Shown: positions 3,301 through 37,408 of the stretch, piece after piece | Layout of the letters: each line of letters starts with the position of its first letter | Position numbering within the stretch: the stretch's first letter is position 1 | Position numbers and translations under genes: made by a program | Assembly (NCBI GenBank): GCA_017475605.1 | Contig: JAFVFD010000005.1 | Location: forward strand, 75,833 to 139,832 | Source: Alphaproteobacteria bacterium | Lineage (GTDB): Bacteria > Pseudomonadota > Alphaproteobacteria > Rs-D84 | DNA length: 64,000 nucleotides | Direction of reading: 5' to 3' | The notes under the pieces: model-generated | Told to the model about the DNA's origin: nothing | The model's input: only the letters and a program-made list of their open reading frames with translations | Databases searched by the model: none

Positions 3301-6300
3301 GTTCCATATTCAGACGATGTAAGGTTAATCGACTTAATCGTTGAACCGGTTGTTCCCGCGAACGAATCTATTGCCGGTGTTGCACCCTTCAGGTTTGCAT
3401 CGACATACAGATTTGCATTTTGCACCGTTCCCAGCCCGGTATCGATATTGTTATTGCGCGTATCCAAAGACCCACCAATCAGCGAACCGCTGAACCCTGC
3501 GCCATTTGCCACGAATACATTGTTTGTATTTGCGGTATCGTTAAACACCGTTGTCCCGGACACCAGGTTCATTACACCCGCGCCAGTGATTGATGCACCC
3601 GATGCAAATTTAACACCGTTTTTCAAATCAACCGTTCCGGCATTTGCCAATGTCGCGGTTGCGCCAAATGTATCGTTATCAAATTCGGCGGTTGCGCCGG
3701 CGACATTATTAACCGTTCCCGCATATGTAGTCGGGTCAGATTTCAACACACCAAAGTTATTAACATTTACACCGATAAATGAATCTTTGATGTTAAGGGT
3801 TGCGCCCGCCTTGTTCACGATATCGGACGAACCAGTAAATTTAACATCGTTCAACGACAACATGGCATTTTCAGAAACGTTCAAATCTTTCTGTAATTCG
3901 ATTGCAAAACCGTCGGCACCGGTTCCAGTAATTCTGAAATCAGAATTATCGATTGAATCATCTGAATCGAACACTTCATTTTCTGTAACGGTATAGTTCA
4001 ATGCCAAACGCGCACCGTCTGCATCGGTTGTTTCGACCGCGGTGTTAATACCGCCGGCGAAACCACGAACAATCATTTGACCGTCCGCCACACCCGATGA
4101 GTTGAATGTCACACCGGTATCAGATGTAAATATTGCCTCGGCAATATCAACGGTTGTGCCGTCGGACACGACCTGGAATGCCTTTTCGCCCGTGCCAATA
4201 TCACCGTTCAGCAGATTTCCAACATAGTATTTAACCGTTCCAGCGGCGGACGCATATTTATCGGCGGTTCCGTTATTCCAGTCAATATCGCCCTTGATTC
4301 CCGCGCCATCGGCCAGGGTAATATTGGACGACAAATCTTGGATAGCATCGTCAATAGTGTTAATAATCGCACCCGACGCGACATTGATGGTTGAACCTGT
4401 CAAATCGGCATTTGTCAAATGCAGTTCACCGGAATTCACATCGACGGTGTGCTTCTTTAATGTATTTGCGATATTGGTGGTTCCTGCACCATTGATATAT
4501 AACTTTGAACCTGCAACACCATCAAATCCACCAGCAAAGGTGTTTGTTTCACCCGCGCCAGAGATAATATTTATTGTTCCCATATTATTGTAAATATCAT
4601 TTGCAGTGGATGCGGTTATATTACCATTTTCTTCATCCCACGTTACATCAGATTTGTTTCCACTGAATGTGTTTGAACCATCAAATGTAATTGTTTTGCT
4701 TGCAGCATTAAAGATTGCACCACCCTTTTCCTTTGCAATATTGTTGGTAAATGTCGCATCTTTGATATTCAACGTATCAAGATTACGAATTGCACCACCA
4801 CCAATAACTGATGATGTTTTCGAAACCCCTGATGCTACGTTTCCGTTAAAGGTTGTGCCATCTATATTAAGGGTCCCTTTGTTGTTATATATTGCACCAC
4901 CAGTCGCTGCCACGTTCTGCGAAATACTACCACCGGTTATGGTTGAGGTTTTTCCACTAGTGCTGTTATAAATCGCACCACCATTACCGGTCGCACCTGT
5001 TCCTGCCGGCACAAGACCTAAACCTTCAACAACATAAATCGGTGCATCATTTTTAATACCACTGTTATTATCTATTGTTGCGTTGTTTATTGTAAATCCA
5101 TTACCACCATTAACCCAAATAACACCAGAACCACCGGTTGATGCATTACCGGTAATTTCAGTTCCGTCAATACTCAAACTGCCTGATGCTACATAGATAG
5201 CACCGGCTTTATTTGCCATATTGTCGGTAATGGAACCACCGCTGATTTCCAATGTTCCGCTATTGTTATAAATCGCACCGCCGGTACCCGTTTTCATAGT
5301 TTCAGTATTACCATCAACAAGCTTACCGTTGCCGGTAAACGTATTGTTTGTTAACGTCAATTTACCAGAACCGTTATAAATCGCACCACCCGATCCACCT
5401 GTGGAAGATTTTCCGGTATAGTTACCCGAAAATGTTGTATTTGATATTTCGGCATCAACAGTTGCATTGTTTTGAATTGCACCACCATTTGTTGCCACTG
5501 TATTACCAGTAAATATCGAATTATCAATGGTTAATTCACTGGTACCAAGATTTGTAATTGCACCACCATTTGTTGCGGTATTATTTTCAAATTTTGCATA
5601 ATCAATGTCCAAACTGCCGCCGGTTGCAGCGAAAATAGCACCACCGGCGCCACTAAACTCACTGCCTTTAAACGATGCACCTTTTGTTGCATTGACTGTC
5701 AACCCAGCACCCGATGCAATATTTGTCCGACCGGTTGATTTTAAACTCTCGCTGACGGTCATATCACCACTGTTAATTGTCAAGCCACCCGCACCAACAG
5801 CCAGGTTTTCAACCTCTATACCGTTTGCACGATTAACAACAACATTACCACTGTTAACATCCAGATTCTTTAATGCTGTATAATAGCGTCCATTTGTTGC
5901 AACGCCTGGTTCCGCCGATTCTGCGACTTCTGTTGCGGTCCATGTTGCACCATCCGTCATCTTAATCGTTGCACCGTGATTGATTTGCAATTTATCATCA
6001 CTTGGTTTATCCTCATAACTTAGCACCGTGTTTCCGGTCCAGTAAGATTCCGCACCATTCAATGTCACATTAACCGTTGCATCAACAGGTGCCCCCGAGT
6101 TTGGCCCTTGTCTAAAATCTATATCGCCGTCCATTTTGACAGTTTTATCACCGGCGGCATTGATATTGGTTACAGAAAGACCAGATGCATAAATGGCATC
6201 TTTGCCCTTGATGGTTGCATTACCGTTAATATTTACGCGCCCCTCGCTAAGAGCAGCAATTGCAGACGCATTCAAATTCGTTAAATTGATTTGATTCGCA

Positions 6301-6827
6301 GTTAAATTAACCGTTGCATAGGTATCTGTTTGCCCTGGATCAGAGCTGTTTTGAACCCACAACGCACCATACCCAACACCACCATCATAAGCTGGGTCAT
6401 TAACAGTTGATGTAATGGAAATTGTGTCATTCGCACGCACATCAACAACACTTTTTGTCCGAACAAGAATACCATCACCACCCGTGTTGATATTAATGGT
6501 GTTTGTGTTATCGCCCCCCAAATGCAACAGTGTCGGTTCAGTGGCACTATACACGGCATTTTTACCGATTTCAATTGCACGTCCATCACCAGGTTCCGTA
6601 ACACTTATATTTTCCGCCAACCATGTAACATTTTGATTACCAGTATATTTAAAAGAACCCGCTGTCCCTGTTGGATATAATTCATCCAATGACACATTTG
6701 TGTATTCAGCCATTGCGGGCGCGGTTGCGATTAAACCCAGTGCGATTGCGTTACACAAAATGCCATGACGTAAAACTGCGCGATACATAGCGGTCAATTC
6801 TTTCAGTACGGTTCTGGTTTGTTTCAT
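363..6827 (-). CDS. Trimeric autotransporter adhesin (YadA-like C-terminal anchor) with many GGAI(Y/F)N repeat modules
   Basis: Single 2154-aa ORF. RBS AAAGGAGAG lies 5 nt upstream of the ATG. The N-terminus MKQTRTVLKELTAMYRAVLRHGILCNAIALGLIATAPAMA looks like an extended signal peptide region. The passenger carries more than 12 GGAIYN/GGAIFN/GGAIQN repeats (Pmp/pectate-lyase-like beta-helix motif) plus a long Ala/Thr-rich stalk. The C-terminus has a coiled-coil (KVDHKVEKLEKK) and ends ...ISIGTGAYADRAGVAVGAFHYFNDHVLLNAGASYGGTSDWAFRAGITFGL, typical of a YadA-type 4-strand membrane anchor. Confidence 0.75.
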   Translation of the reverse strand: MKQTRTVLKELTAMYRAVLRHGILCNAIALGLIATAPAMAEYTNVSLDELYPTGTAGSFKYTGNQNVTWLAENISVTEPGDGRAIEIGKNAVYSATEPTLLHLGGDNTNTININTGGDGILVRTKSVVDVRANDTISITSTVNDPAYDGGVGYGALWVQNSSDPGQTDTYATVNLTANQINLTNLNASAIAALSEGRVNINGNATIKGKDAIYASGLSVTNINAAGDKTVKMDGDIDFRQGPNSGAPVDATVNVTLNGAESYWTGNTVLSYEDKPSDDKLQINHGATIKMTDGATWTATEVAESAEPGVATNGRYYTALKNLDVNSGNVVVNRANGIEVENLAVGAGGLTINSGDMTVSESLKSTGRTNIASGAGLTVNATKGASFKGSEFSGAGGAIFAATGGSLDIDYAKFENNTATNGGAITNLGTSELTIDNSIFTGNTVATNGGAIQNNATVDAEISNTTFSGNYTGKSSTGGSGGAIYNGSGKLTLTNNTFTGNGKLVDGNTETMKTGTGGAIYNNSGTLEISGGSITDNMANKAGAIYVASGSLSIDGTEITGNASTGGSGVIWVNGGNGFTINNATIDNNSGIKNDAPIYVVEGLGLVPAGTGATGNGGAIYNSTSGKTSTITGGSISQNVAATGGAIYNNKGTLNIDGTTFNGNVASGVSKTSSVIGGGAIRNLDTLNIKDATFTNNIAKEKGGAIFNAASKTITFDGSNTFSGNKSDVTWDEENGNITASTANDIYNNMGTINIISGAGETNTFAGGFDGVAGSKLYINGAGTTNIANTLKKHTVDVNSGELHLTNADLTGSTINVASGAIINTIDDAIQDLSSNITLADGAGIKGDIDWNNGTADKYASAAGTVKYYVGNLLNGDIGTGEKAFQVVSDGTTVDIAEAIFTSDTGVTFNSSGVADGQMIVRGFAGGINTAVETTDADGARLALNYTVTENEVFDSDDSIDNSDFRITGTGADGFAIELQKDLNVSENAMLSLNDVKFTGSSDIVNKAGATLNIKDSFIGVNVNNFGVLKSDPTTYAGTVNNVAGATAEFDNDTFGATATLANAGTVDLKNGVKFASGASITGAGVMNLVSGTTVFNDTANTNNVFVANGAGFSGSLIGGSLDTRNNNIDTGLGTVQNANLYVDANLKGATPAIDSFAGTTGSTIKSINLTSSEYGTADSITLAVGDATLSDDLQITGAMNYYTKVEKDGTNLVFSDKLVNASGMKANARLADYDNTTSGLTATTLQGAIDENATNVAAINTTLGTYGDVVTHDAAEFASAAQGTKADSAIQSVKVNGTALTPDAAKAVDITAVTGIKIGTGAAQSGEVTLGTTAATNLAANLDAATPTDAEIATWAADNATNVATVGTTFDVLSKKLMNVQSDLMAAGDNASSIAHALGAATGVGLIDQVNAMADARIVASTVDAADLHTAILTIDGSSVEAKDKRNALGALLTTGANAGKTLTAASTAEAVAEYMKLSADVMSQYDFGWDLNTGLPHDLVAGKMKIDVLNDASVTDKTVAGAINANTAAIANIATTATTAWNQAEAWMNTALGIDSTANDADDALQAALGTTNYLGGDTSFSGALKTLDGQAKTNADAIATNATNIAANKDAIDVLNGDASTVGSVDYKIAGALSTVEAGVTAVYNQAHDWAENLLGVDVDENVNNQLQNALTSKEVIGSTTTIAGALSNLDAGVDALQNVVGDAQTTAATTGILSGEKIGDTVSLVDAVNTIATTAVGTDTDNTFTGTNTFEKQIVAEKGVKFGSDYSIDENGAATLASVTAANGFTVDANNTLTSTGLTAAAATIAGNATVGGTLGVTGALSGSTATFTGAVSADSLSATNGVSGKTLTATDSITLGTSTITSIDTAGLARNVAGSDSALATTSSVVATIKNQAEDATYTNTITSGSNVSGATLNAAIANLDATIGDMSGLNARDDANSVGNALANGGTTTPTTVVAALNNIDATLGTIHGLKTKLESAGTYKGNLATGTTVEEHLTAIDSAIGDRSSLASLNTAINNAAKTDVATALETTGNLIGNMTFDGTNYLASVTDLSEAVRVLDSNIAKVDHKVEKLEKKVNSGMASMAALTALVPNARDCGDTQISIGTGAYADRAGVAVGAFHYFNDHVLLNAGASYGGTSDWAFRAGITFGL

Positions 6828-7499: not shown

Positions 7500-7564
7500 G
7501 GTTCCTATTAAAAATCGCACGCCTTGTACGCATAATAAAAATATAACAATTGGGGGGAAATAAT

Positions 7565-8644
7565 ATGAATATGAAATACTTTGCCGCAACAATTGTCGGC
7601 ATTTTGGGAATCGCACATTACGCAGATGCATGTACGGGTATTACCCTGCGCGCGAAAAACAATGATATGGTTGTCGCACGAACTGTCGATTGGCATGGCG
7701 ACGAAATGAATAACATGTATGTAATTGCGCCACGCGGACACACACAAAAATCTTTGACCCCGGACGGCAAAATGGACGGCCACGAATTCACATCGGTATA
7801 TGGCTATGTTGGTATTGCGGTCCAGACACCAGATTTTGTAATCGATGGCACGAACGAGGCCGGACTTTCCGCAGGGTTATTCTATTTCCCTGAATATGGT
7901 GAATACCCCTGGTATAATAAAAATGATAAAGAAAACAGCATTGCGGACTTTGAATTGGTGGCGTGGATGCTGTCGCGGTTTTCAACCATCGACCAAATCA
8001 AAGAAGCCATCAAAGATATTACCGTTACCAATATCGACCCGTCTGCTTCAACGGTGCATTGGCGCATCACCGACGCGACCGGCAAACAGGTTATCCTTGA
8101 ATTCATTGATGGCGAGGCGCATTTTTACGACAGCAAGGTCGGCGCGATTTCGAATTCGCCGGGCTATCCATGGCACATTACAAACCTTAATAACTATATA
8201 AACCTGGAACCCGGGACCAGCAATCCAAAAAAACTGGGCGATTTTACATTGCGACCATTTGGCTCTGACAGCAAGATGCTGGGCCTGCCCGGCGACTTTA
8301 CACCGCCATCGCGATTTATTCGTGCCGCGCTGTTAAGCAACTATTCCATACCGCAAAAGGACGGTTATGAATCTGCGATGAAGGCGTTTCATATCTTGAA
8401 CAACCTGGACGTGCCGTTGGGGGTTGAATTTGATTCCGGCCGCGCAACAAACAATATGCCGTCCGCAACACAATGGACAATCGCAACCGATTTGGGCAAC
8501 CGGGTTATTTACTATCACACGATGTATAACCGCACAATCCGTTCTATCGATATGAAGAATATTGACTTTGCGAATGTCCGGTTCCAATACGCGCCCCTGG
8601 ACACAGCCAAGGTACAAACGATTATTCCAATAAAAGTAAAATAA
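7565..8644 (+). CDS. Secreted choloylglycine-hydrolase / linear-amide C-N hydrolase (Ntn-hydrolase) family protein
   Basis: Signal peptide MNMKYFAATIVGILGIAHYADA is followed directly by Cys (CTGITLRAKNND...ARTVDW...YVIAPRG), the N-terminal nucleophile arrangement of bile-salt hydrolase / penicillin V acylase. RBS GGGGGGAAA lies before ATG 7565. The tool start at 7550 is a TTG. Confidence 0.65.
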   Translation: MNMKYFAATIVGILGIAHYADACTGITLRAKNNDMVVARTVDWHGDEMNNMYVIAPRGHTQKSLTPDGKMDGHEFTSVYGYVGIAVQTPDFVIDGTNEAGLSAGLFYFPEYGEYPWYNKNDKENSIADFELVAWMLSRFSTIDQIKEAIKDITVTNIDPSASTVHWRITDATGKQVILEFIDGEAHFYDSKVGAISNSPGYPWHITNLNNYINLEPGTSNPKKLGDFTLRPFGSDSKMLGLPGDFTPPSRFIRAALLSNYSIPQKDGYESAMKAFHILNNLDVPLGVEFDSGRATNNMPSATQWTIATDLGNRVIYYHTMYNRTIRSIDMKNIDFANVRFQYAPLDTAKVQTIIPIKVK

Positions 8645-8648
8645 ATCG

Positions 8649-8679
8649 ATTTACCTTTCATTTTTTCGTGTATATAATC
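8649..8679 (+). promoter_or_regulatory. Putative sigma70 promoter for the DUF1015 gene
   Basis: TTTACC (8650-8655), 17-nt spacer, TATAAT (8673-8678). RBS AAAGGAG at 8691-8697, ATG at 8704. Confidence 0.35.
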
Positions 8680-8703
8680 GCCATACTATCAAAAGGAGAT
8701 TAT

Positions 8704-9942
8704 ATGAAAATTAAACCATTTCGGGGTATTCGCCCACCACGCGAACTGGCAGAAGAAGTCGCATCGCGTCCGTATGATGTTCTGAACTCTGCCGAAGCAA
8801 AAGCCGAGGCCGGCGAAAAATCATTACTGCACATTATAAAACCAGAAATCGACTTTGACCCAATTGCCGGTGAACACGAACAGCGCACCTATGACAAGGC
8901 CGTTGAAAACTTCAAGAAATGGCAGGACAATGGTTGGCTGGTCGCGGATGACCGGGAAATGTATTATATCTATGCCCAAACAATGAACGGCCGCACACAA
9001 TATGGCCTGGTTGCCGCCGCGAATGTTGACGACTATATGACCGGCAAAATTAAAAAGCACGAATTGACACGCAAAGAAAAAGAAGATGACCGCATGATTC
9101 ACGTGCGTATTCAAAACGCGAATTTGGAACCTGTGTTCTTTGCGTATCCAGATGTAGATGAAATGAATAAAATTGTTGCGGACTTTGTTGCGAACAACGC
9201 GCCCGAATACGACTTTGTTGCGCCGGACGGTTTCGGACACACATTCTGGGCAATTCGCGACGATGCAATAAATGCACGCATAACCGAAATCTTTAAAAAC
9301 ATTCCGGCAATGTATGTCGCCGATGGCCACCATCGTACCGCCGCCGCCGCACGTGTTGGCGCGGAAAAGCGCGAACAAAACCCGAACCACACCGGAAATG
9401 AAGAATACAATTATTTCTTGGCTGTGATTTTCCCATCGTCGCAATTGCACGTTATCGACTATAACCGCGTTGTGCGCGATTTGAACGGTTTAACAAAAGA
9501 AGAGTTCTTGAACAAGCTGTCTGAATCATTCGACGTTACCGAAATGGGTGCCGATATTTACAAACCAAACAAATTACATAACTTTGGAATGTATCTGGGC
9601 GGGAAATGGTATTCGTTAACCGCGAAACCCGGCACATATAATGACAGCGACCCGATTGGTGTTCTGGACGTAACAGTGTTATCGAACCTGGTGTTTGATA
9701 AAATCTTGAACCTGGGTGATTTGCGCACCAGCGCCCGCATCGACTTTGTCGGTGGTATTCGCGGCCTTGGCGAATTACAGAAACGTGTTGATTCCGGTGA
9801 AATGGTGGCGACATTTGCGCTGTACCCTGTTACAATGCAGCAAATTATCGATATCGCCGACACCGGCAACATTATGCCACCAAAAACAACATGGTTTGAA
9901 CCAAAATTGCGCAGTGGTTTGGTTATCCACAAATTGTCATAA
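8704..9942 (+). CDS. DUF1015-family protein
   Basis: N-terminus MKIKPFRGIRPPRELAEEVASRPYDVLNSAEAK matches the M-x-I-x-PF-x-G-x-RP...PYDV signature I recall for DUF1015. Strong RBS AAAGGAG. 413 aa. Confidence 0.55.
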   Translation: MKIKPFRGIRPPRELAEEVASRPYDVLNSAEAKAEAGEKSLLHIIKPEIDFDPIAGEHEQRTYDKAVENFKKWQDNGWLVADDREMYYIYAQTMNGRTQYGLVAAANVDDYMTGKIKKHELTRKEKEDDRMIHVRIQNANLEPVFFAYPDVDEMNKIVADFVANNAPEYDFVAPDGFGHTFWAIRDDAINARITEIFKNIPAMYVADGHHRTAAAARVGAEKREQNPNHTGNEEYNYFLAVIFPSSQLHVIDYNRVVRDLNGLTKEEFLNKLSESFDVTEMGADIYKPNKLHNFGMYLGGKWYSLTAKPGTYNDSDPIGVLDVTVLSNLVFDKILNLGDLRTSARIDFVGGIRGLGELQKRVDSGEMVATFALYPVTMQQIIDIADTGNIMPPKTTWFEPKLRSGLVIHKLS

Positions 9943-9945
9943 AAG

Positions 9946-9972
9946 AAACCGCCCAAACGGGCGGTTTTTATT
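9946..9972. terminator. Bidirectional rho-independent terminator
   Basis: ACCGCCC-AAAC-GGGCGGT hairpin (9948-9965) followed by TTTTTATTTTGTTTTT on the + strand and preceded by an A-run. It sits between the convergent genes ending at 9942 (+) and 9968 (-). Confidence 0.6.
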
Positions 9973-10375
9973 TTGTTTTTGCCTTATAGTTTTCAATATA
10001 TTTACGATAGTTTGGATCTTCTGTATATTTGGTTATATTGAATTTATCCATTTTGTGTAATCTGTTTGCGATTTGTCGCGCAGATGACGACACACCATGC
10101 CCTATGTGCGCACGAAAAATAATTTGCGCTGGAACATATTTATGACTTTTGTGCATACGTGGTTCAAAACCCATGGCACGCACAATCTCGAACGACTTGG
10201 CATCCATTTGTTCAAAGTAAACATACGGCTGTCCGTTGCGCGCACGCACAACTTCTGGAACCATGTCAAAAATATCGACCAACAATGCCGCATCAAAGTC
10301 CGCATTGTGCCGAAAATTATTTGGCAATTTTATCTCTGGTTTAATAATACTTTTTAAGCATTCTTTTATTGTCAT
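9968..10375 (-). CDS. Hypothetical protein (about 135 aa)
   Basis: ORF with internal start MTIKECLKSIIKPE at 10375, preceded by AAGGTG. No recognisable family. Confidence 0.4.
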   Translation of the reverse strand: MTIKECLKSIIKPEIKLPNNFRHNADFDAALLVDIFDMVPEVVRARNGQPYVYFEQMDAKSFEIVRAMGFEPRMHKSHKYVPAQIIFRAHIGHGVSSSARQIANRLHKMDKFNITKYTEDPNYRKYIENYKAKTK

Positions 10376-10444
10376 AAAAACACCTTTATTCTTGCAACAC
10401 AAGAATACACGAAAAACACTTTTTGTCAATATAATTATTATTTG

Positions 10445-13400
10445 CTAGATTCCCACCCGATGTGTCAATTTCATCATAAAGATGGACTCATTACCAAATT
10501 CATCTGTATTATTTGGATTTACCCGATAAATGAAGCCCAACGCGCCGTCTGTAAACGCGCCAAAGTTATGGCGATATTCCGCATTGAATCGCAATTCCCG
10601 TTTATCCGCACTTAAATCTAGTTCCGCGATATGTGCATTCGCAATATCAAGTGCAAAATTACCATCATCGGTATCAACAATATGATAGTCGGCATACGCA
10701 TATTGCAGCGCACCATGCCGCACCGCCAATGGTTGCGCAACACTTAACCGGAAATTACCAATTTCGGCACCAATTCCAAATGCGTTTGATTCAAGTTCTG
10801 ATACCCCCAGGACAAAGTCCCCCGCCCCATCGGTTGTTGTGCGCGCAAATGTCGCACGCGCGGTAAGTGTAAAATTATCAAATGGACGAACACGCAATTC
10901 ATTATCAACATATATCGTTTCACCCGCACCCATATCAAGCAAACCATTCGTATATGCCCCCAAAACAGTATCCGTTTCGTTCACCGCACCAACGGTTGTA
11001 TCAAACCCAAAATATTTACCACGCCATGCAACATTTGCACCCGCACCACGTACCAGGCCCAACCGCGCCGGCGCATAATTTGCCGCTATTGTTGGGTCAT
11101 GTTCCAACAAAGATTCATCAGTTACCGCACCTGAAAACGCGCGCGCACCAAACGACCATTTACCGAAATTATATTCAGCATCCGAAATAACTGCATTTGA
11201 CGCAAGGTTCAAAATCGGATTGCTCATCCCTGAAAAACGCGACACCCCGTCGGTAAGATGCCGCTGATACCCCGCTGCCATATTCCAATTACCCGTTGTC
11301 CAATCTAATTTCATATTATCCAATCCGCCCATATTGTCATTATAGGCACGCGGTGATACCGCCATTGAAAAACCAAGTTTCCCCATCTGAATCCGATTTT
11401 CATCCGCATCATGCGTTTTCAATTCGCCCAACACATCGCCCATATAAAGTCCATGCCTTGAATTCGTCCCCAGTGCGAATTCATTTGTCCAAACACGTGG
11501 CAACGACAATTCACCATCAACACTGGTCAACACATCAAATGCCGATGTCCGTAATGTTGCATTACGCGCACCAAATGCCGACGACGACATAAATGCTGTA
11601 TTAGATGCCGCCCGCCAATACGCATTACCGGCATCTGACACAATATCGGTTCCATTATAATAGAAAATATTTTTCCCCGGTGTTGTTGCGCGTTCAACAT
11701 TGATTAACCCGTAACCAAATACTTCCTTGAACGCATCAAGATAATCAAGATTTCCAGCATTCACCATATACTGATATTCATTTGGCAATTCATACATACC
11801 CTGTAGATACGATTTCAAGTCATCTTTTGTAAATGTGGTACCCGATTCATTTGTTCCCAAGTACGCACCATCGGCGGTCAATGCCACCAGCGCAAATATT
11901 TGTTGATTTGTCAGATACGGAAAGGCCGACTTTACCGCCCCAAATGCACCTGCGGCACTTGCCACCGCTAATTCATCGGTAACACCCGCCGCGGCAAAGC
12001 ACCATGGGTCAATTCCGTTTGCCCCCATACCCCCAACACCACACATACGCGCCCGATAATATGTATCATCGGTTGTGTCCGGCGTATTATTTGTATTTTG
12101 CCATTGTGCCAAAATATATTTATTATTCGGCGAATAACCGGAAACAGTTGATGTTCCATTGGTCCCTGTCCCCTTTTGTCCAACGGCAACAATGGACGCA
12201 AATAAATGTTCCATATTCGCACCGTATACCAGCGGTGCCGCATTTTCAAAAGTCGCAACCCGCGCCACCCCAGAATATGCCGCATCCGTTGTTACCCCAC
12301 CGGTTGAAAACAGGACCAATGGTGAATAAGACGAACCCAGCCCACTGAAAAACTGTTTTGCTATCGCCCCCTGGGTACTGGCTGTTGAATCGGCATTATA
12401 ATATTTATTCACATATAAAGAAAATTGGTTTTGATAATCTTCTGATGTTGTTGCGGATATAGACAACAAATCGTCAATGGTCGCTGTGTCCGTCGCATAC
12501 AAAGGTGTAATCACCGATGCATTTGCTAATATGTTTGGACGCGACCGCCCCATTGTAACATCACCCGCGGTGTACAATGCCGCCCCCGCCAACAATGCCC
12601 GATAATTATAATAGTCAATAGTATTTCCGTTATTATCAACGCCTCCACCCGTTCTAAAAATTGTCATTTGTCCGTTTGGCATAAATCCCATAAAGTCGGC
12701 AGTAGACCCTGTTGTAACGGAACCCGCCACCACCTTGGCCAGCAAATTATCCATATCGGTTGCCGATGTATTGTTTATCGCGGTGCCATTACCCGATAAA
12801 TCAAACGACGCGACCAACGTCGAATCTTCCGATGTAGTATCATCGGTCAATGTTCCGGTGTCTGTGCCATAGGTTATCTTGTTATTATAATATTTGCTGG
12901 AAATCATATTGTTGGACGCGGCATTCACTTCTGTTCCGTTGTTATTAAGTGTTGTCCATGGCATCAATTTATCCGCCAATGAAGTATCATCCGCGGCATT
13001 GATACCATTTGCGGTAATTAACGCAACATTTATCGGTCGGCCCCCCAACACAGGTTCTGTTCCCAAATTATTTCCACCGATATTCAACGGTGCATCGGTT
13101 GATTTATTGCGTAATGTTGACATACCCATATATCCGCGTGCGAATGCCGAATAGCCACGCATCATAAGCAGGTAATTTTGCCCATATGTATTTGTCATTA
13201 AATTAAAGTTTTTATATAAAATACTGTCTGTATCAGATGGGCTGTATAAATCCAGCGCATTTGTATAATTATAATCTTCCGCCAATGATGCCGGGCCATC
13301 TGGCAAAGTAAATGCCGCGGTTGCATTTGTCGAACCACCGCCACCATTGTTGCCACCACCATGTGATCCAGACGAAGAAGAAGATTTATTATCGTTTCCC

Positions 13401-13825
13401 GGATCCAACCAATCGGTTAACAAAAACAGCCCCCCAACGATAACGGCGGCCCCCGCCGCCGTTAATGTTATGCTTTGGGCAGAAGATAACCCGCCGAATA
13501 ACCCACCACTGCTGCCGGTTGGTTTATTCCTGGAATTATACTGCTTAATCTGACGGTCGCACTTTGATGCATCGGCACCATACATTTGTAATATTTGCGC
13601 GGCCCGAACATCGTTATTCATTAACGCGGTACACACCAACGACAGCCCAGTTGAATCAACATAATTTACGTTTGCGCCATTGTTGATAAGTGCCTGCACC
13701 TGCTGAATATCGGCATTTTTAGCCGCAGACAACAACTGTGCCGCAACCATAAATTCATTTGTTGCACCAAACGAAACCGCCGGTATCAAGAACAATAAAA
13801 AGCCGAAAACTCGCATAAATCTCAT
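10445..13825 (-). CDS. Secreted ankyrin-repeat / subtilase-like (S8-fold, probably catalytically degenerate) protein with an autotransporter-like C-terminal beta domain
   Basis: Signal peptide MRFMRVFGFLLFLIPAVSFGA. Ankyrin repeats (AAKNADIQQVQALINNGANVNYVDSTGLSLVCTALMNNDVRAAQIL). The segment ...AGAFGAVKSAFPYLTNQQIFALVALTADGAYLG...GYGLINVERA resembles the subtilisin Ser-motif region and C-terminal GYGL(I/V)N, but the GTSMA, HGTH and DTG catalytic motifs are not recognisable. The last ~300 aa show alternating amphipathic beta-strand character. Confidence 0.55.
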   Translation of the reverse strand: MRFMRVFGFLLFLIPAVSFGATNEFMVAAQLLSAAKNADIQQVQALINNGANVNYVDSTGLSLVCTALMNNDVRAAQILQMYGADASKCDRQIKQYNSRNKPTGSSGGLFGGLSSAQSITLTAAGAAVIVGGLFLLTDWLDPGNDNKSSSSSGSHGGGNNGGGGSTNATAAFTLPDGPASLAEDYNYTNALDLYSPSDTDSILYKNFNLMTNTYGQNYLLMMRGYSAFARGYMGMSTLRNKSTDAPLNIGGNNLGTEPVLGGRPINVALITANGINAADDTSLADKLMPWTTLNNNGTEVNAASNNMISSKYYNNKITYGTDTGTLTDDTTSEDSTLVASFDLSGNGTAINNTSATDMDNLLAKVVAGSVTTGSTADFMGFMPNGQMTIFRTGGGVDNNGNTIDYYNYRALLAGAALYTAGDVTMGRSRPNILANASVITPLYATDTATIDDLLSISATTSEDYQNQFSLYVNKYYNADSTASTQGAIAKQFFSGLGSSYSPLVLFSTGGVTTDAAYSGVARVATFENAAPLVYGANMEHLFASIVAVGQKGTGTNGTSTVSGYSPNNKYILAQWQNTNNTPDTTDDTYYRARMCGVGGMGANGIDPWCFAAAGVTDELAVASAAGAFGAVKSAFPYLTNQQIFALVALTADGAYLGTNESGTTFTKDDLKSYLQGMYELPNEYQYMVNAGNLDYLDAFKEVFGYGLINVERATTPGKNIFYYNGTDIVSDAGNAYWRAASNTAFMSSSAFGARNATLRTSAFDVLTSVDGELSLPRVWTNEFALGTNSRHGLYMGDVLGELKTHDADENRIQMGKLGFSMAVSPRAYNDNMGGLDNMKLDWTTGNWNMAAGYQRHLTDGVSRFSGMSNPILNLASNAVISDAEYNFGKWSFGARAFSGAVTDESLLEHDPTIAANYAPARLGLVRGAGANVAWRGKYFGFDTTVGAVNETDTVLGAYTNGLLDMGAGETIYVDNELRVRPFDNFTLTARATFARTTTDGAGDFVLGVSELESNAFGIGAEIGNFRLSVAQPLAVRHGALQYAYADYHIVDTDDGNFALDIANAHIAELDLSADKRELRFNAEYRHNFGAFTDGALGFIYRVNPNNTDEFGNESIFMMKLTHRVGI

Positions 13826-13888
13826 GAATTTCTCTCTGTGTACATAATCTTAACACAGATTTAACAATTCTGTCTAGCAAAAAATAAT

Positions 13889-13915
13889 ATCCCCATGCGA
13901 ACATGGGGATATATT
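13889..13915 (-). terminator. Rho-independent terminator for the 13941-14741 gene
   Basis: Minus-strand hairpin ATATCCCCATG-TTCG-CATGGGGATAT followed by TATTTTTT. Confidence 0.5.
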
Positions 13916-13940: not shown

Positions 13941-14741
13941 TTAATAACATTTAGAACGAGAACCCAAAACAACGGTCGTTGTTGTACGGCACGCGTTTTG
14001 ATACAGACGTTTCTTTTTCTGTGGTTCTGTTGTGTTCACATTATTATCATGGCCGTTAACATTACCATTTGCGTTAACAACACCATTTGCATTAACAATC
14101 ACATTACCATTGTTATCGCCAGTGATAACAACTGTTTGTGTTGGTGTGTGTGCATTTGTACGAACAACAACAGTATCCGGTGTGGCAACAATTTCTGTTT
14201 TCTGTTCCGGACATGGAGTTGGTTTCACCGGTGCCGACTTCGCTGGCTGCGCTGGTTTAACAGGTGCTGGTTTTGCCGGTTTCACAGGCTGTGCTGGTTT
14301 TGCCGGTTTTGCAGGCTTTTTGGCTGGCTTGGCCGGCTTTTTAGCCTGTTTCGCTGGTTTTTCACATTTGCAGCAATCACATTTGTTTTTCGCATCCTTG
14401 CAATCACAACCTGTCTTATTACCTTGGCATGCGCAAGCCTTGGCTTCACGACAAACCGCCAAAGAATCACGCAAATCTGCTATTGTGGAATCACGTACGA
14501 CAATTGTATCGCGCAAAGCGGAATTTTCATCATTCAATTCACTAATGCGCCCATTTGCCGCTTCGACTGCGTTGCTGGCATCTGTCAATGCTGTATTGTT
14601 CTTTGAAACAAGTGTATGCCATTCCTGTGCTTCATCACGTGCAGCACGTTTATCGCTGCACTGTTTAACACCGAAAACAATAGCGATAACCGCAACCGTT
14701 CCCAGTGCGATATTTGCCCAAGTTCTTTTATCCATAGCCAT
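13941..14741 (-). CDS. Membrane-anchored coiled-coil, Cys-rich protein with (PAKPAK)n proline/lysine-rich tandem repeats
   Basis: N-terminal TM WANIALGTVAVIAIVFGV. A coiled-coil segment. Cys cluster CACQGNKTGCDCKDAKNKCDCCKCE. Then KPAKQAKKPAKPAKKPAKPAKPAQPVKPAKPAPVKPAQPAKSAPVKP, encoded by imperfect tandem DNA repeats at about 14235-14345. RBS AAGGGA. Confidence 0.5.
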   Translation of the reverse strand: MAMDKRTWANIALGTVAVIAIVFGVKQCSDKRAARDEAQEWHTLVSKNNTALTDASNAVEAANGRISELNDENSALRDTIVVRDSTIADLRDSLAVCREAKACACQGNKTGCDCKDAKNKCDCCKCEKPAKQAKKPAKPAKKPAKPAKPAQPVKPAKPAPVKPAQPAKSAPVKPTPCPEQKTEIVATPDTVVVRTNAHTPTQTVVITGDNNGNVIVNANGVVNANGNVNGHDNNVNTTEPQKKKRLYQNACRTTTTVVLGSRSKCY

Positions 14742-14802: not shown

Positions 14803-14887
14803 GTATAAATTTCATTTTTATTATTTTATCTTGTTTTTCCCTTTGCGCCCCACACCGTTTTTTGATATAATTAGGCATCAGAGAGAA

Positions 14888-15748
14888 ATGATAAAAAAAC
14901 TTGCTTTTGTAATACTATCTTGTGCGCTGGTGCCTGTGGTTGGGCATTCGGCGTGTTCACGCGCGAATTTAACACGTTGTTTGGATTCTGCGTGTGCGGT
15001 TAACATATCGTCAAATCCGGCGGCACGTTGTCAATATTGTGGTACTGCGGATGCCGGCGAACCGAACGACGCGGGGTTGCGTGCCGTATCCGTTGGAACA
15101 TCTGCGAAATACAATATTTCGGCGCGCGATTTGAAAAGCGCCCCAACCGATCCCGGCGAACGCTATGTTTGGGCATCAAAAAAATGTATTTCTATTGTTG
15201 ATGGCTGTACCGCGGACGATGTGTCGGATGTGTACGATAAATTAATTGAACAATCTTGTACCGCCGCGGGAATAAGTGCACAAATGGCCGTACTATTCGA
15301 AAATGCGCGCAAGGTTAAGACAGAATCTGCATGTAAATCTGAAATAACGGCGTGTATGGTTGGCGAAGCAAAATGTACTTCTAAATACAGCGGCTGTGCC
15401 GAAGATGCCGATTTTGATAAATATTTTTCGGAATGTTCCATCGCATCTGTTGGTTGTGATGCGTATTTGTCGGACATCCGTTCAACACTTGCCACCGCAC
15501 GCGATCGCGCAATTAAAAACGCCGAGGAAACACTTTTGGCCATTGTCCAATCGTACAGGGATGCGCGTGCAAAACGTTTGGCTGCAATTACCAAATCGTG
15601 CGATGATAACTCTGCGCGCGACGCGTGTATAACATCTGTATGTAACCGCAGTATGCCGAACAAGTGCGATGCGGCATATCCATCTGAAAAATCTATGGCA
15701 ACACAGTTGTGCAAGTTTTATGACATAGCGTGTTCGACATTAAAATAA
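14888..15748 (+). CDS. Secreted cysteine-rich protein, C-x6-C module family, paralog 1
   Basis: Signal peptide MIKKLAFVILSCALVPVVGHSA. Repeated modules ACSRANLTRCLDSAC, CKSEITACMVGEAKCTSKYSGC, CSIASVGC, CDDNSARDACITSVCNRSMPNKC. The tool ORF start at 14831 precedes the signal peptide and is unlikely. Confidence 0.55.
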   Translation: MIKKLAFVILSCALVPVVGHSACSRANLTRCLDSACAVNISSNPAARCQYCGTADAGEPNDAGLRAVSVGTSAKYNISARDLKSAPTDPGERYVWASKKCISIVDGCTADDVSDVYDKLIEQSCTAAGISAQMAVLFENARKVKTESACKSEITACMVGEAKCTSKYSGCAEDADFDKYFSECSIASVGCDAYLSDIRSTLATARDRAIKNAEETLLAIVQSYRDARAKRLAAITKSCDDNSARDACITSVCNRSMPNKCDAAYPSEKSMATQLCKFYDIACSTLK

Positions 15749-15755
15749 ACGGAAT

Positions 15756-17792
15756 ATGTTGAAAATGAATACGAACAGAACCGGAATCTTTGGCAGAAAA
15801 ATTTGTAGTGTGGCCTTTATTATTTTGGCGGTCGTTGCCGATGCGTCGGCTGCAAATGTGGTCCAGCGAAATACGGTATCTTCAACAAATCGGGTTTCGG
15901 CCACACGTCCATCCGCCGCGGCATCTCGTATGCCAACAATGATGGTTAATGTTGGCGCAACATCACAAAGCACAACACCGGCAGTATCGGACACACCCGC
16001 CACGACAACAACGAAAACCACAACTACAAACACCCCGGAACCAACACCAAACATTGAAAACAAATCATCACAATTTGGTACGGGCCTTACATCTAAATCA
16101 GAAACCCAGATTGACACCGCGGCAACAAACCTGGCTGAATTGGTCCGCGCACAACGTGCTGCACTGGATGCGGCGGATGCGACCGCGGCAATAACTGCGG
16201 CGGCACAAACCGTTACAATCAACGGGGAAAACTCCTGTGATACCGCGTTGCGTGAATGTATGATTGGCAAATGTGGTTCTAATTTTGCAAAATGCGTTTC
16301 CGATACAGATACTACATTTTTCGATAAAATGGACACATGCCGTCGCACAACGAATTGTACCGGCCATGAATATCAATTGTTTTCCGTTGAAATCAAGGCC
16401 GATCGTGATTTAAACGCAATGCTGGCAAATTATAACGCGACAATCGATTGCGGTAATAATTACGATTCTTGTATTATCGCACAGTGTGGGGCTAATTATT
16501 CCAAATGTATTGGTAAAAGTGCCGGCGACACCGCAATTGCAAAATGCGAATCAATCGCGAAATCATGTATTGAACGCGATTCCGGTTTGGCAATGCGAAC
16601 AATGGGTGTATTTGGCGAACTACGCCAGGATGCCGAACGCCAGATAGCAACCGACGAACAAAAATTGTATGCCCTGCGGGATAGAATGCGCACCCTTTGT
16701 ACGCGTTTGGGTGCAATGTTTGACGAACGCAGTTTGGATTGTGTTTATACGGTTAATTTTTATGCTGGCAAGGACAACACGCTTTTCGCATCCAAAAAAT
16801 TATATGCTGGTTCAACATTTGATTGCACACAAAATTGGTTCGGTATTGATGTAACAACATACCGCGAAAACGCACTCCGCGAAACACGCGCACAAACCGC
16901 GGCATCATCTGCGATGCTGGGGTCCGGTCTGGGCCAGGCCGTTGGTGCATTCACATCGGGCGCAATTGGTCGTGCCGTTGACCGGTTCCGCGCCGACAAT
17001 GCCCTGGAAGATAAAATCAATGAATGTATGGAAACCCACAACATGACGGAATCAGAATGTCGCGCCAAGATTAGTCCATCATCTGAAAAAACGGACAAGA
17101 CGGGAAATGCCAGCGAAACATTAAAGGCCGCCAAAGCACAATTTGATGATATTAAGAACAAGTTGGGTACAGACGGTGAAGGAAGTTTTTCAACGGGCAC
17201 TGTTTCATCTGCGGCCACAGCGGCAGCCGGTGCTGCAACATCCCAAGAAGATGGTTCGACTAAAGAAGAAGTTGTTGAAGAACAACCTGAAGACGAAGAG
17301 GTTTCAATGTCCACCCCAGATAATATAGACAAACCAGTAATCGACAAGAAACAAACAGATGACGTGTATGATGTTAATTTGCCAACCTCTTTATCAACTG
17401 AACCAATAGCTATCATCAACGGAAAACTTAAGGTAAATGTTGACAATAAGTACGCAGATGCCATTAGAAACTTTGTGAAAGACGAACGCTGGAAAGGTTC
17501 TGAAAAGAAACCACAGATATATAAAAATGTCCCCAACCAAACAATAGAGATAAGTTTATATAATAAGGCCTGGACTATAAACAAAGACTTGCATGACAAA
17601 TGGTTGAAAACTACAAAAGTCGATTCAAACAATTATCCTAATGATGAAATGTTTTCAGTTTGTTCAACACTAGAAAGCCAGTATTGTAATGGTTTAGACA
17701 ACTGTGGCATAAGTTATGTCGGTCGTCATAGTGGCACAGAAGCCAACTATTACTATGGTTGCTACATCTCTGTGCCATACAGCGAACAATAA
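15756..17792 (+). CDS. Secreted cysteine-rich protein, C-x6-C module family, paralog 2, with a compositionally distinct C-terminal domain
   Basis: Signal peptide; Thr-rich linker. Perfect C-x6-C-x4-C-x6-C modules (CDTALRECMIGKCGSNFAKC and CGNNYDSCIIAQCGANYSKC), plus CESIAKSC. Acidic linker. The last ~165 aa (17290-17792) are visibly more A/T-rich. Confidence 0.6.
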   Translation: MLKMNTNRTGIFGRKICSVAFIILAVVADASAANVVQRNTVSSTNRVSATRPSAAASRMPTMMVNVGATSQSTTPAVSDTPATTTTKTTTTNTPEPTPNIENKSSQFGTGLTSKSETQIDTAATNLAELVRAQRAALDAADATAAITAAAQTVTINGENSCDTALRECMIGKCGSNFAKCVSDTDTTFFDKMDTCRRTTNCTGHEYQLFSVEIKADRDLNAMLANYNATIDCGNNYDSCIIAQCGANYSKCIGKSAGDTAIAKCESIAKSCIERDSGLAMRTMGVFGELRQDAERQIATDEQKLYALRDRMRTLCTRLGAMFDERSLDCVYTVNFYAGKDNTLFASKKLYAGSTFDCTQNWFGIDVTTYRENALRETRAQTAASSAMLGSGLGQAVGAFTSGAIGRAVDRFRADNALEDKINECMETHNMTESECRAKISPSSEKTDKTGNASETLKAAKAQFDDIKNKLGTDGEGSFSTGTVSSAATAAAGAATSQEDGSTKEEVVEEQPEDEEVSMSTPDNIDKPVIDKKQTDDVYDVNLPTSLSTEPIAIINGKLKVNVDNKYADAIRNFVKDERWKGSEKKPQIYKNVPNQTIEISLYNKAWTINKDLHDKWLKTTKVDSNNYPNDEMFSVCSTLESQYCNGLDNCGISYVGRHSGTEANYYYGCYISVPYSEQ

Positions 17793-17820
17793 AGTAAACG
17801 AATAAGAATTACAAAAGACA

Positions 17821-20800
17821 ATGAAAAAATTATTGATTGCTTTTTTATTTATCGTATCTGTAATACCGGCGGCATTTTCCGCACAGTCTGATGTGTATTC
17901 ATGTGGTATTGCGTCATCCGCTTCTGCACCGAATATAGTTCCCGCAGACAATTGTATTCCCCAGGATATTTTACGGGACTATCGTGTTATCAAGGGAACC
18001 GTTGTCAAGGCAAAAACAGATTCCAGGGAAAAGGTCGAACTTGTTTCCATACGTTTTACCCCGAAAGATAAATCTCAATCAAAAGAATTAATGTTCATCG
18101 CCAGCCCACATTTCGCATTTTATATCAAGAAAGGTATAGATGGTGATATTTCTTTTACTGCCGATGGATATCAAACACTTATATTACACCCACGTGATTT
18201 TGATGAAACCATGGGACGTTATGTTGAAATGGTACCCCAAAGTGCAGCCCCAACCACTACAGCACATGCTGTTGAAAGTCCAACAACACCAACATCTACC
18301 CCTGAAGCAAATAAAGCTGCAACCAGCACAACGCGCACACGTGCATCTACGCGTTCAGGTTCTACGCCACCAACAAATGGCGGTTCTGCCACTACCGCAA
18401 CAGTACATAAAAAAATTAACGGCAAGATTATCGAAGGTGACACAAAATTACCCGCTATTGGCGCATACGTTACCCCACGTGGTGTCAAATCGTCCCCGTC
18501 TAATTCGGGTATAGCCGATGAAACAGGTGCTTTTCATATTGAAATGTTCCCTGCAAACACCGACGCAGAGGTGTCGTATATGGGGTACACAACAAGAATA
18601 GTTTCCGCATCACAAATGAATGATGGGATGAATATTACACTTCAGCCATCTACAGAAACTTTGGACAAGGCGGTCCTTTCCATTGTTGATTGTGGCAAAG
18701 AAAAGCGTGCAGAATTACACGCACTTACAGCCGAAGTATTAAACAACACAACGTGTATTCCAACATCTTGTGAAAATGGTTATATTTTGGAAAAACCTAA
18801 AAACATTGATGCAAAATGTACATCTTGTACAGGTCGTGTTCCCCTGGCCCGCACAGTAACAGTTGAAAACAACCAATGTGTTCCTGACAGATGCGAAACA
18901 AACCTGGTACGCGTTGGCAATCAATGCTTGGTCGATTGTGATAAATTCAAATCTAAATTAAATGCCAAGACGGTAACACGAAAGACCCCCGGGCCAACAA
19001 CTATTGCCCCAAACAATGACTATTCTTCATTTTGTAACATAGAAAGTTGTATAAACCATTCTTTCAAAAAAATTGATAATCAGTGTGTCTTACAAACAGA
19101 CAAAGAATGTGATGATGTCGCCAAAAACATTAAATATGCATCGCCAAAAGGTAAATATATATACGATCGCAAGACCGATACTCTTATCTGCATTCCGGAC
19201 TCTTGTACAGCAACGGGATATGTTGTTAATAAGACTACTGGTCAATGCGAATTAAAAGATAACAATTGCCCTGCTGAAATCTTGGAAAAGATGGATCCAA
19301 ATGCATCGGCGGGCAGTATAAAAGAACGTGACCCCATCACAGGTGTTGCCAAAACATGCGAAATTACAGGGTGTAATAATTCCATGACCCCTAATTCCAA
19401 CGGCACCAAATGCGTCAATTCGCAATGTGGCTGCGGTCAAACTTGGGATTCAACAAAAGATGAATGTGTGTCAAAAACCGAAAGAACATGCAGTGTAAAA
19501 AATGTAAAACACGCAAAGCCGTCTGGAAAATTACAATGCCAAAACACAACAAGCATGGCATTGTCTGACGCATGCGACAAGAATACTAGTTGTAAAGAAA
19601 TCTGTGCTGTTACAGAATGTGAAGACGATTACAAATTAAACCAACAAAACAATTCTTGTGATGTTCCAACCGGTGAATGCGATTTTACTGGCGACAAACA
19701 ATTCGCCAAAGACAAAGGTATTTGGAAAGAAAAATCAGGTGTGTTGGTTTGTGAACCCATCTGTAATGGCACAAACTATGAACTTGACTGGAACCCCCAA
19801 GAAAAGAAGTATAACGGTTGCAAAGTTAAATATTGTCCATGTGGTTCAATCTTGGATGACTCGACAAAGTCTTGTAAAACATGGGCCGAACTTGGTAAAT
19901 CTAACTGCGACCCGATGCCGACTGGCGCAACAGCGGCCACCCGCAGTTGTCGCGATAATTCCAGTGGTGTCGAAACCACCAACTGTGCCGACGGTACATG
20001 TACAGAATTCTGTAAGATAACCGCGTGTGATACGGCCGCCGGATATATATTAAAGGATGGCACATGTGAATCTCAGGTTGGCAAACCATGTACCGCCGAG
20101 CAATTGCCAGAAAACGCGGTGGCGGGAACACAACGCGAAAACAATGGCAAGATAGAATGTGTTATCAGCAAATGCGCCAACGGATTTGAGGTTCGCCCTG
20201 ATGAATTGTCCTGTGCACCCAAAATGGTATTAAGTCCGGAACAATACCAAGATGAAATCGCCGAACTGGCCGACAACGCACAAAAAATGCATGAACGTGA
20301 AACATCGTTGGAAAATCGTATATTGGGCGCGGCGGGAATTGGCGCAACGGGTATTGGTGGTACAATGATTGGCGGCGCATTGGCCGAACGTCGTGCGGAC
20401 GATGATGCGGAACGCGCAATGCGTGCATATCTGGAAACATTCCATTGCGATTATGGTAATGGTACGAATGTAAAGGGTGGCGAAACAAATGTCGAATTAC
20501 CGGGCGGTAACGATATGATTGGCCTTTACACCGAATACGCACAACTTGCCAATGATTTAAAGATTCGCAAGGAAGCCCTGGGCCTTCGTCCCGGCATTGA
20601 ATCCGAGGTTGTTATTGACAAGGCCGAAACAGGTTTATACGAATACAGCAATAACGGTATTACCGGTGGAACGTACGCATCTATCGCACGTGCCCTGCTG
20701 AACCCAGACGGCGAAGATGCAAAGATGTGGGCCGCGCAACGCGCCGCCACCGACAGCAAATTAAAAACAGGTGCAATTGTCGCCGGTGTTGGTACGGTGG

Positions 20801-36161: not shown

Positions 36162-36280
36162 AGAAAATCCCCCCATGATAGTTGTTCTAATTATACCATA
36201 AAAAAGCCTTAAAAAAAGTTTTTTTACCGTAATTTTTGCTTTTTATTGAAAAAACTTAAAACATTGACAAAAACAATATC

Positions 36281-37381: not shown

Positions 37382-37408
37382 AAAACCGCCCGTTTGGGCG
37401 GTTTTTAT
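37381..37408. terminator. Bidirectional rho-independent terminator
   Basis: AACCGCCC-GTTT-GGGCGGTT with flanking A-run and T-run. Confidence 0.6.

Follow-up and report, generated by a model that had tools for sequence, protein, structure and literature searches.

The stretch of DNA analysed here, a window of 64,000 nucleotides on contig JAFVFD010000005.1 of an alphaproteobacterium (coordinates below are positions in this window), carries on its minus strand a gene whose product comprises, in order, a signal peptide, two ankyrin repeats, a hydrophobic helix (H2), a linker, a subtilisin-fold domain and an 18-strand barrel of porin size. It is a single real gene, encoding a lineage-specific outer-membrane protein of Candidatus Enterousia and the order Rs-D84. 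The subtilisin-fold domain, referred to below as the body, is a pseudo-enzyme, with no conserved Ser-His-Asp triad anywhere. We consider it probable that this architecture is correct and that the protein acts as a non-catalytic scaffold of the outer membrane, a judgement that leaves aside the face of the membrane on which the body lies. The anatomy set out below draws on sequence features, an alignment of the family and two AlphaFold 2 (AF2) models.

10445 to 13825, minus strand: whole gene, 1126 codons and a stop codon (open reading frame list; full-length homologs at 50-99% identity)
13766 to 13825, minus strand: predicted Sec signal peptide, residues 1-20 (starts with MRFMR; hydrophobic core; Pro at -6; cleavage-type site between SFG and A)
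13541 to 13759, minus strand: two ankyrin repeats, residues 23-95 (Pfam Ank_4; invariant Cys65 and Cys89)
13406 to 13507, minus strand: Gly-rich hinge and hydrophobic helix H2, residues 107-140 (GGLFGGLSSAQSITLTAAGAAVIVGGLFLLTDWL; Kyte-Doolittle hydropathy)
13316 to 13405, minus strand: Gly/Ser/Asn low-complexity linker, residues 141-170 (composition)
11657 to 13315, minus strand: subtilisin-fold body without catalytic triad (pseudo-subtilase), residues 171-723 (invariant Cys595 and Cys609)
12998 to 13033, minus strand: putative remnant of the Asp32 strand, residues 265-276 (INVALITANGIN; greedy hhalign)
12779 to 12805, minus strand: putative remnant of the His64 motif, residues 341-349 (FDLSGNGTA; mapping inferred from hhalign)
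11906 to 12010, minus strand: remnant of the Ser221 motif and helix, residues 606-640 (DPWCFAAAGVTDELAVASAAGAFGAVKSAFPYLTN; partial Pfam S8 match)
11696 to 11716, minus strand: GYGLINV, residues 704-710, the C-terminal S8 core motif (hhalign, conservation)
11558 to 11656, minus strand: body-barrel junction, residues 724-756 (low to medium model confidence, pLDDT)
10448 to 11557, minus strand: C-terminal outer-membrane beta-barrel, residues 757-1126, 18 modelled strands, ending in HR(L/V)GI
13847 to 13912, minus strand: terminator-like hairpin (13912-13887), then a promoter-like site (13876-13847), from a consensus scan

A gene fusion or an assembly artefact is ruled out as the origin of this open reading frame (ORF): across the 80 loci fetched for comparison, from independent assemblies, the full architecture is present in 80 of 80, and the gene is full length in every one. 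A preliminary description, made from the DNA alone, had recognised the ORF and two strings in it, AGAFGAVKSAFPYLT and GYGLINV, which indeed lie at residues 625-639 and 704-710. Clustered at 90%, the family comprises at least 678 members, from uncultured Alphaproteobacteria, either unnamed or annotated as 'ankyrin repeat domain-containing protein', and 253 stretches were confirmed in GTDB species genomes. Titled genomes are those of Candidatus Enterousia or of Alphaproteobacteria and Proteobacteria from human, mouse, chicken, horse, pig and ruminant guts; two are closed chromosomes of 0.72 and 0.96 Mb. Purifying selection on the gene is shown across the whole order, and no paralog of the body or the barrel was found among the 22 other ORFs of the window. 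The start codon is preceded by a 115-bp gap containing the hairpin (stem of 11 bp with 5 G-C pairs, followed by a T-run) and then the promoter-like site (TAGACA-18-TAAGAT with TG before it, a consensus match only); the gene therefore probably forms its own transcription unit.

The N-terminus has the features of a Sec signal peptide, with a Kyte-Doolittle peak of 1.9 (19-residue window). Residues P15 and A21 are invariant among the homologs, whose N-termini all show n, h and c regions and a terminal small-x-small motif followed by Ala. These conserved features suggest that the protein is exported, as the preliminary description had proposed, and that the signal peptide is cleaved. The ankyrin repeats, also proposed there, are recognised by Pfam Ank_4 over residues 31-79 (E 3.3e-5, 24.5 bits against a cut-off of 22.7), and a PDB sequence search returned designed ankyrin proteins (DARPin) only, aligned over residues 25-91, which correspond to two repeats; there is thus a hidden Markov model (HMM) match above threshold, and the repeats are at least two consecutive units of 33 residues. 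Full-length searches of Pfam, NCBIfam and PDB sequences gave ankyrin matches only, those in NCBIfam being weak matches to AnkY and AnkH (E 0.05, about 12 bits, far under the 600-bit cut-offs), and distant members of the family likewise match only ankyrin in Pfam. Both cysteines, C65 and C89, are found in 71 of 71 sequences.

The hydrophobic helix H2 is a feature that the preliminary description lacked. Its Kyte-Doolittle maximum is 2.07 in the query over the same window length, and it is found in all 150 members tested, with a median of 2.14. Conservation across the protein is highest in the ankyrin repeats and H2, whose median identities to the query are 88% and 79% respectively; the body and the barrel reach 57% and 58%. 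The linker that follows (G 30%, S 23%, N 17%) is the least conserved segment, with a mean top-residue frequency of 0.54, and is modelled at a predicted local distance difference test score (pLDDT) below 35.

The body is modelled at pLDDT 80-95 over residues 171-723, as an alpha/beta subtilisin fold with a seven-stranded parallel sheet. Its nearest structural relatives are secreted or surface subtilases, and its longest structural alignments are with autotransporter passengers; a chance resemblance to the subtilisin fold is unlikely. Support for the S8 family at the sequence level is weak and local. A match to Peptidase_S8, and one to Autotransporter, had been anticipated in the preliminary description, and neither appears when the full-length query is compared with Pfam, even at E<=10. 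The 150-residue fragment 581-730, however, gives a sub-threshold match to PF00082 (E 0.12, 12.1 bits against a cut-off of 21.8) spanning profile positions 242-274 of 288, and the same Ser-motif region matches PF00082 in 9 of 28 diverse family members, with a best E-value of 1.9e-4 and no other family recurring. A profile of the Ser/GYG region found four matches among PDB sequences at E<=10, three of them S8 proteases, namely fusolisin and two Aeromonas ASP entries, aligned at the Ser and C-terminal GYG motifs. Together with the model, these matches bear out the proposal of an S8-like fold around the Ser-motif helix and GYGLINV. The body alone found nothing among PDB sequences, a 7-sequence body profile gave no match at E<=10, and an exhaustive body-profile search of 1.84 billion representatives recovered the family itself only (70 clusters at 50% identity), with no bridge to active S8 enzymes. 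When aligned by hhalign with subtilisin BPN', Carlsberg and proteinase K, the body reached probabilities of only 1.4-2.5%, and GYGLINV alone was confidently aligned, with BPN' residues 263-273; this stretch is the best-conserved 15 residues of the body (0.88). Inside the fold lies a hypervariable insertion site. After residues 395-402 (window positions about 12620-12642) most homologs carry a beta-rich insert of 60-80 amino acids with TLT-type repeats, giving a typical length of about 1212 residues, and the insert reaches about 230 residues in members of 1380-1401 residues; the query is the short form.

The preliminary description had argued that the catalytic triad is lost, since no DTG, HGTH or GTSMA motif could be found. 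HGTH and GTSxAxP are indeed absent from the query. The strings DTG and GTS do occur, at residues 322 and 557, and these positions are not conserved, so that both are chance strings and the catalytic motifs themselves are absent, as claimed. The loss itself is confirmed by residue counts that need no alignment to subtilisins, and it therefore does not depend on any one alignment. Among 71 diverse members no body column is His in 90% or more, the best being H540 at 76%; H540 is the only His among the 553 residues of the query body, and S623 is the sole Ser between residues 600 and 630.

Alignment leads to the same result. The catalytic Ser faces E618 in both HMM alignments, with fusolisin, an S8 autotransporter of the kind proposed earlier for this comparison, and with Aeromonas ASP. 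If a shift of up to two residues is allowed the candidates are T616 (Thr in 137, Asn in 8 and Ser in 7 of 154 sequences), D617 (Asp in 123) and E618 (Glu in 136), and Ser occurs at any of these positions in at most 8 of the 154. Greedy hhalign places Asp32 at T271, in VNVALITANGIN compared with VKVAVIDSGID of subtilisin; residues 266-271 form a strand in the AF2 model, and position 271 is Thr in 147 sequences and Ser in 6, never Asp. By hhalign His64 falls on position 346, Asn in the query, within an FDLSG-x-GTA motif resembling D..GHGTH. This position is Ser in 56, Asn in 26, Phe in 21, His in 19, Ala in 10, Tyr in 10 and Trp in 6 of the 154 sequences, all of which retain D342. In none of the 154 do Asp, His and Ser occur together. 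For the central strands three alignments gave three incompatible registers, and for this reason we claim no equivalent of the oxyanion-hole residue Asn155.

Could the body nevertheless still be an enzyme, working through non-canonical residues? Such an enzyme might use Thr616-Asp617-Glu618 with D342 or D359, loosely in the manner of the sedolisins, in which the catalytic residues are Ser-Glu-Asp. We regard this as highly improbable. Position 616 can also be Asn, Ser, Tyr or Gly, 617 Ala, Ser or Gly, and 618 Gly, Ala or Asp, a lack of invariance unusual for catalytic residues; the same kind of decay is seen in known S8 pseudo-proteases such as CspC and CspA; and no enzyme of subtilase fold that uses Thr or Glu as its nucleophile is known to us. 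Within the body, conservation is highest in the vestigial core motifs GYGLINVERA, GFMPNGQMTIFRTGG, DPWCFAAAGVTDE and GGRPINVALITANGI, which argues that the old cleft has been retained for a non-catalytic use rather than left to decay.

The C-terminal barrel, when modelled alone (residues 757-1126), is predicted with a pLDDT of 84.7 and a predicted template modelling score of 0.80 to have 18 long strands, within the 16-18 strands of porin-type barrels; it has no porin match in Pfam or among PDB sequences. The autotransporter-like C-terminus of the preliminary description was not upheld, as there is no match to the Autotransporter family (PF03797), no 12-strand translocator and no pore helix in the model. 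The POTRA domain and 16-strand barrel that would mark a type Vd, Omp85 or TpsB protein were not found either. Thus the part of the earlier interpretation that saw a pseudo-protease joined to ankyrin repeats stands, and the part that saw an autotransporter barrel does not. A classical type Va autotransporter, with the ankyrin repeats and pseudo-S8 domain as a passenger secreted through a 12-strand translocator and displayed on the surface, would agree with the passenger-like alignments of the body, and is largely refuted by the barrel; we consider it very unlikely. By its features the protein belongs neither to type Va nor to type Vd, and it is not an active S8 peptidase.

We envisage that the whole chain would be exported by Sec across the inner membrane and that the barrel would anchor it in the outer membrane. 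The dead subtilase would then serve as a rigid, non-catalytic binding platform in which the old substrate cleft is kept, and the ankyrin-H2 module would provide a conserved end for interaction or anchoring. Passage of the whole chain across the inner membrane is suggested by H2 itself. Its flanks carry mean net charges of +1.45 on the N-terminal and -2.39 on the C-terminal side in the 150 members, the reverse of those expected for a stop-transfer segment, and stop-transfer would strand the barrel in the cytoplasm; for both reasons we reject H2 as an inner-membrane stop-transfer anchor. Several observations weigh against the scaffold proposal. The Asp/His half of the body gave no S8 signal in the HMM test, HMM support for the triad mapping extends to the Ser position only, and the Asp32 and His64 positions are inferred from low-probability hhalign alignments. 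In the AF2 model residues 12-170 have pLDDT values below 50 and the H2 region appears as a short, low-confidence helix (127-133). The C-terminus (residues 1103-1126, window positions 10448-10519) ends in a conserved HR(L/V)GI, without the terminal aromatic residue usual in proteobacterial outer-membrane beta-signals.

On which face of the outer membrane, then, does the pseudo-subtilase lie? We lean, tentatively and at somewhat less than even odds, towards the outer face, as in subtilase autotransporters, because the longest structural alignments are with autotransporter passengers, because the body has a hypervariable insertion site, and because the loops assigned to the outside, the best-conserved part of the barrel, surpass the strands in conservation, as though they were capped. 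Other features count against such a placement. No pore-spanning alpha-helical linker is modelled at the junction, where the model shows short strands and a helix of 4 residues; a 7-residue helix (795-801) is the only further one nearby. Strand parity puts the start of an 18-strand barrel, with turns here of 1-5 residues, on the periplasmic side, and, in common with porins, the barrel has a conserved third loop that exceeds all the others in length. Finally, at least 55 of 75 loci encode, immediately upstream, a protein predicted to be a rod-like, inner-membrane-anchored coiled coil with a Pro/Lys-rich tract, which hints at a trans-envelope complex.

These same features would suit an arrangement in which the barrel is a porin-like channel or anchor, and the pseudo-subtilase, linker, H2 and ankyrin repeats hang in the periplasm, linking the outer membrane with the cell wall or with a partner in the inner membrane, as in SLH-porin fusions (OmpM) and exporters that join a TPR domain to a barrel. 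The structural matches of the barrel include OmpM1, PelB, BcsC and PgaA, all with periplasmic N-terminal domains, and the extreme conservation of the ankyrin repeats would fit an internal partner. We give this arrangement appreciable weight, as a possibility well short of even. It offers H2 no natural place, since a single pass would split the ankyrin repeats and body across the inner membrane; the subtilases structurally closest to the body are secreted or surface proteins, and the insertion site in the body is hypervariable; the loops, if they were the sole exposed part, would be expected to vary, yet they are the best-conserved part of the barrel; and a terminator-like hairpin separates the upstream gene from this one.

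The logical locations of H2 are four: the barrel lumen, a position in or across the outer membrane, a membrane interface, or the membrane of a partner cell. Were H2 to cross the outer membrane, the ankyrin repeats and the body would be placed on opposite sides, and it is to such split topologies that we assign what probability the two placements above leave over. A bolder proposal treats the protein as a one-piece device by which a bacterium obligately dependent on a partner would attach to another cell, with the barrel as holdfast, the dead subtilase as stalk and the near-invariant N-terminal module as a membrane-inserting tip. H2 would then span the membrane of the partner cell, and its flanking charges would fit an ankyrin domain on the cytoplasmic side of that cell; in a variant H2 spans the outer membrane of the bacterium itself, which would separate a disulfide-locked ankyrin domain from the body. 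We think the attachment device improbable; if true, it or its variant would be a topology undescribed for any outer-membrane protein family.

The upstream neighbour is a 266-residue ORF (13941-14741, minus strand) with an N-terminal transmembrane helix, a coiled coil, a Cys-rich stretch, a KPAKPA Pro/Lys-rich tract of TonB-like appearance, an Asn/Val-rich C-terminus and no Pfam match; its positional orthologs share these features in very divergent sequence. Divergent from it is a strongly syntenic plus-strand cluster (14831-21810) of ORF305 (Cys-rich, with a signal peptide), ORF678 (Cys-rich in its N-terminal half) and ORF1329 (a weak CarboxypepD_reg match), which adjoin the gene in 74, 73 and 51 of the 80 loci. 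On the downstream side, 15 bp past the stop codon, a poorly conserved 153-residue ORF (9968-10429, minus strand; no Pfam match, detected in 4 of 80 loci) may be co-transcribed with the gene. Beyond it, at 7550-9942 on the plus strand, are two genes that lie nearby in 30 and 25 of the 80 loci: the first belongs to the choloylglycine hydrolase family (CBAH, E 8e-63) and may encode a bile-salt hydrolase, and the second matches DUF1015 (E 1e-114). A 2154-residue ORF (363-6827, minus strand) with a C-terminal YadA-like anchor (PF03895, E 5.4e-10) and a Chlamydia PMP repeat match is a trimeric autotransporter adhesin, so that a canonical type V system is encoded close by.

For a genome below 1 Mb, giant uncharacterised proteins are unusually frequent in the window, and further very large minus-strand ORFs without a Pfam match at E<=0.001 occur at 23070-28265 (1731 residues), 37408-40368 (986 residues) and 34065-36176 (703 residues). 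Between 44000 and 48000 the G+C content falls to 0.35-0.38, compared with about 0.43 elsewhere. In this dip lies an ORF for a 620-residue N-6 DNA methylase (45645-47507, minus strand; PF02384, E 3e-30), and the region is possibly a restriction-modification island that was acquired. GC skew is negative nearly throughout, and no transfer RNA, transfer-messenger RNA or Rfam family was matched across the 64 kb.

Members of Enterousia and the order Rs-D84 are widespread in human, livestock and poultry guts, and have reduced genomes of less than 1 Mb, with incomplete glycolysis and without respiration, the tricarboxylic acid cycle or standard transporters; they probably depend on partners (PMC12306168). 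The literature on them does not mention this protein (PMC12306168). Because it is kept full length under genome reduction and has a near-invariant ankyrin-helix tip, the protein is a strong candidate for a core function in the envelope or in contact with other cells. The gene offers a concrete target for further study, in which the topological puzzle of H2 and the near-invariant ankyrin module deserve most attention.

How does this architecture compare with known systems? In the databases searched, only proteins of this lineage were found to join ankyrin repeats to a hydrophobic helix, a dead subtilase and an 18-strand porin-like barrel, in keeping with the earlier remark that the combination is unusual. 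The subtilase autotransporters, to which NalP and SphB1 also belong, are similar in the order of their parts, examples being Ssp of Serratia marcescens (PDB 8e7f) and fusolisin (PDB 8axg). Ssp has an intact Asp76/His112/Ser341 triad, is released by self-cleavage and has a 248-residue beta-helix stalk and a translocator domain (PMC9977779). The Rs-D84 protein, in contrast, has neither triad nor stalk, ends in a porin-like barrel of 18 strands without an Autotransporter HMM match, and has an additional ankyrin-helix module at its N-terminus. A passenger-like domain is thus joined to a barrel of porin size, not to one of type V. The precedents as S8 pseudo-proteases are CspC and CspA of Clostridioides difficile (PDB 6mw4, 9pr9), soluble spore proteins of a Firmicute with neither the membrane barrel nor the ankyrin repeats found here. 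Since they are not the subtilases closest to the body, catalysis appears to have been lost independently, so that a protease fold has become a non-catalytic module separately from the clostridial Csp proteins.

The porins OmpT of Vibrio cholerae, Omp32, OprP and maltoporin, and the SLH-porin OmpM1, have 16-18 strands and share 8-11% identity with the barrel. Porins form trimers with a constriction-loop channel; the present barrel resembles them in its predicted geometry, and to our knowledge no porin carries a subtilase or ankyrin domain. An N-terminal, amphipathic helix plugs the barrels of FhaC/TpsB and Wzi, and FhaC also has POTRA domains; H2, by comparison, is strongly hydrophobic, POTRA domains are absent, and AF2 gives H2 no confident placement. 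The Dot/Icm Ank effectors of Legionella and Coxiella are likewise ankyrin-repeat proteins of host-associated bacteria. They are cytoplasmic substrates of type IV secretion without a Sec signal peptide, whereas the repeats described here follow a predicted Sec signal peptide, include a pair of invariant cysteines and belong to the polypeptide chain of an outer-membrane protein.

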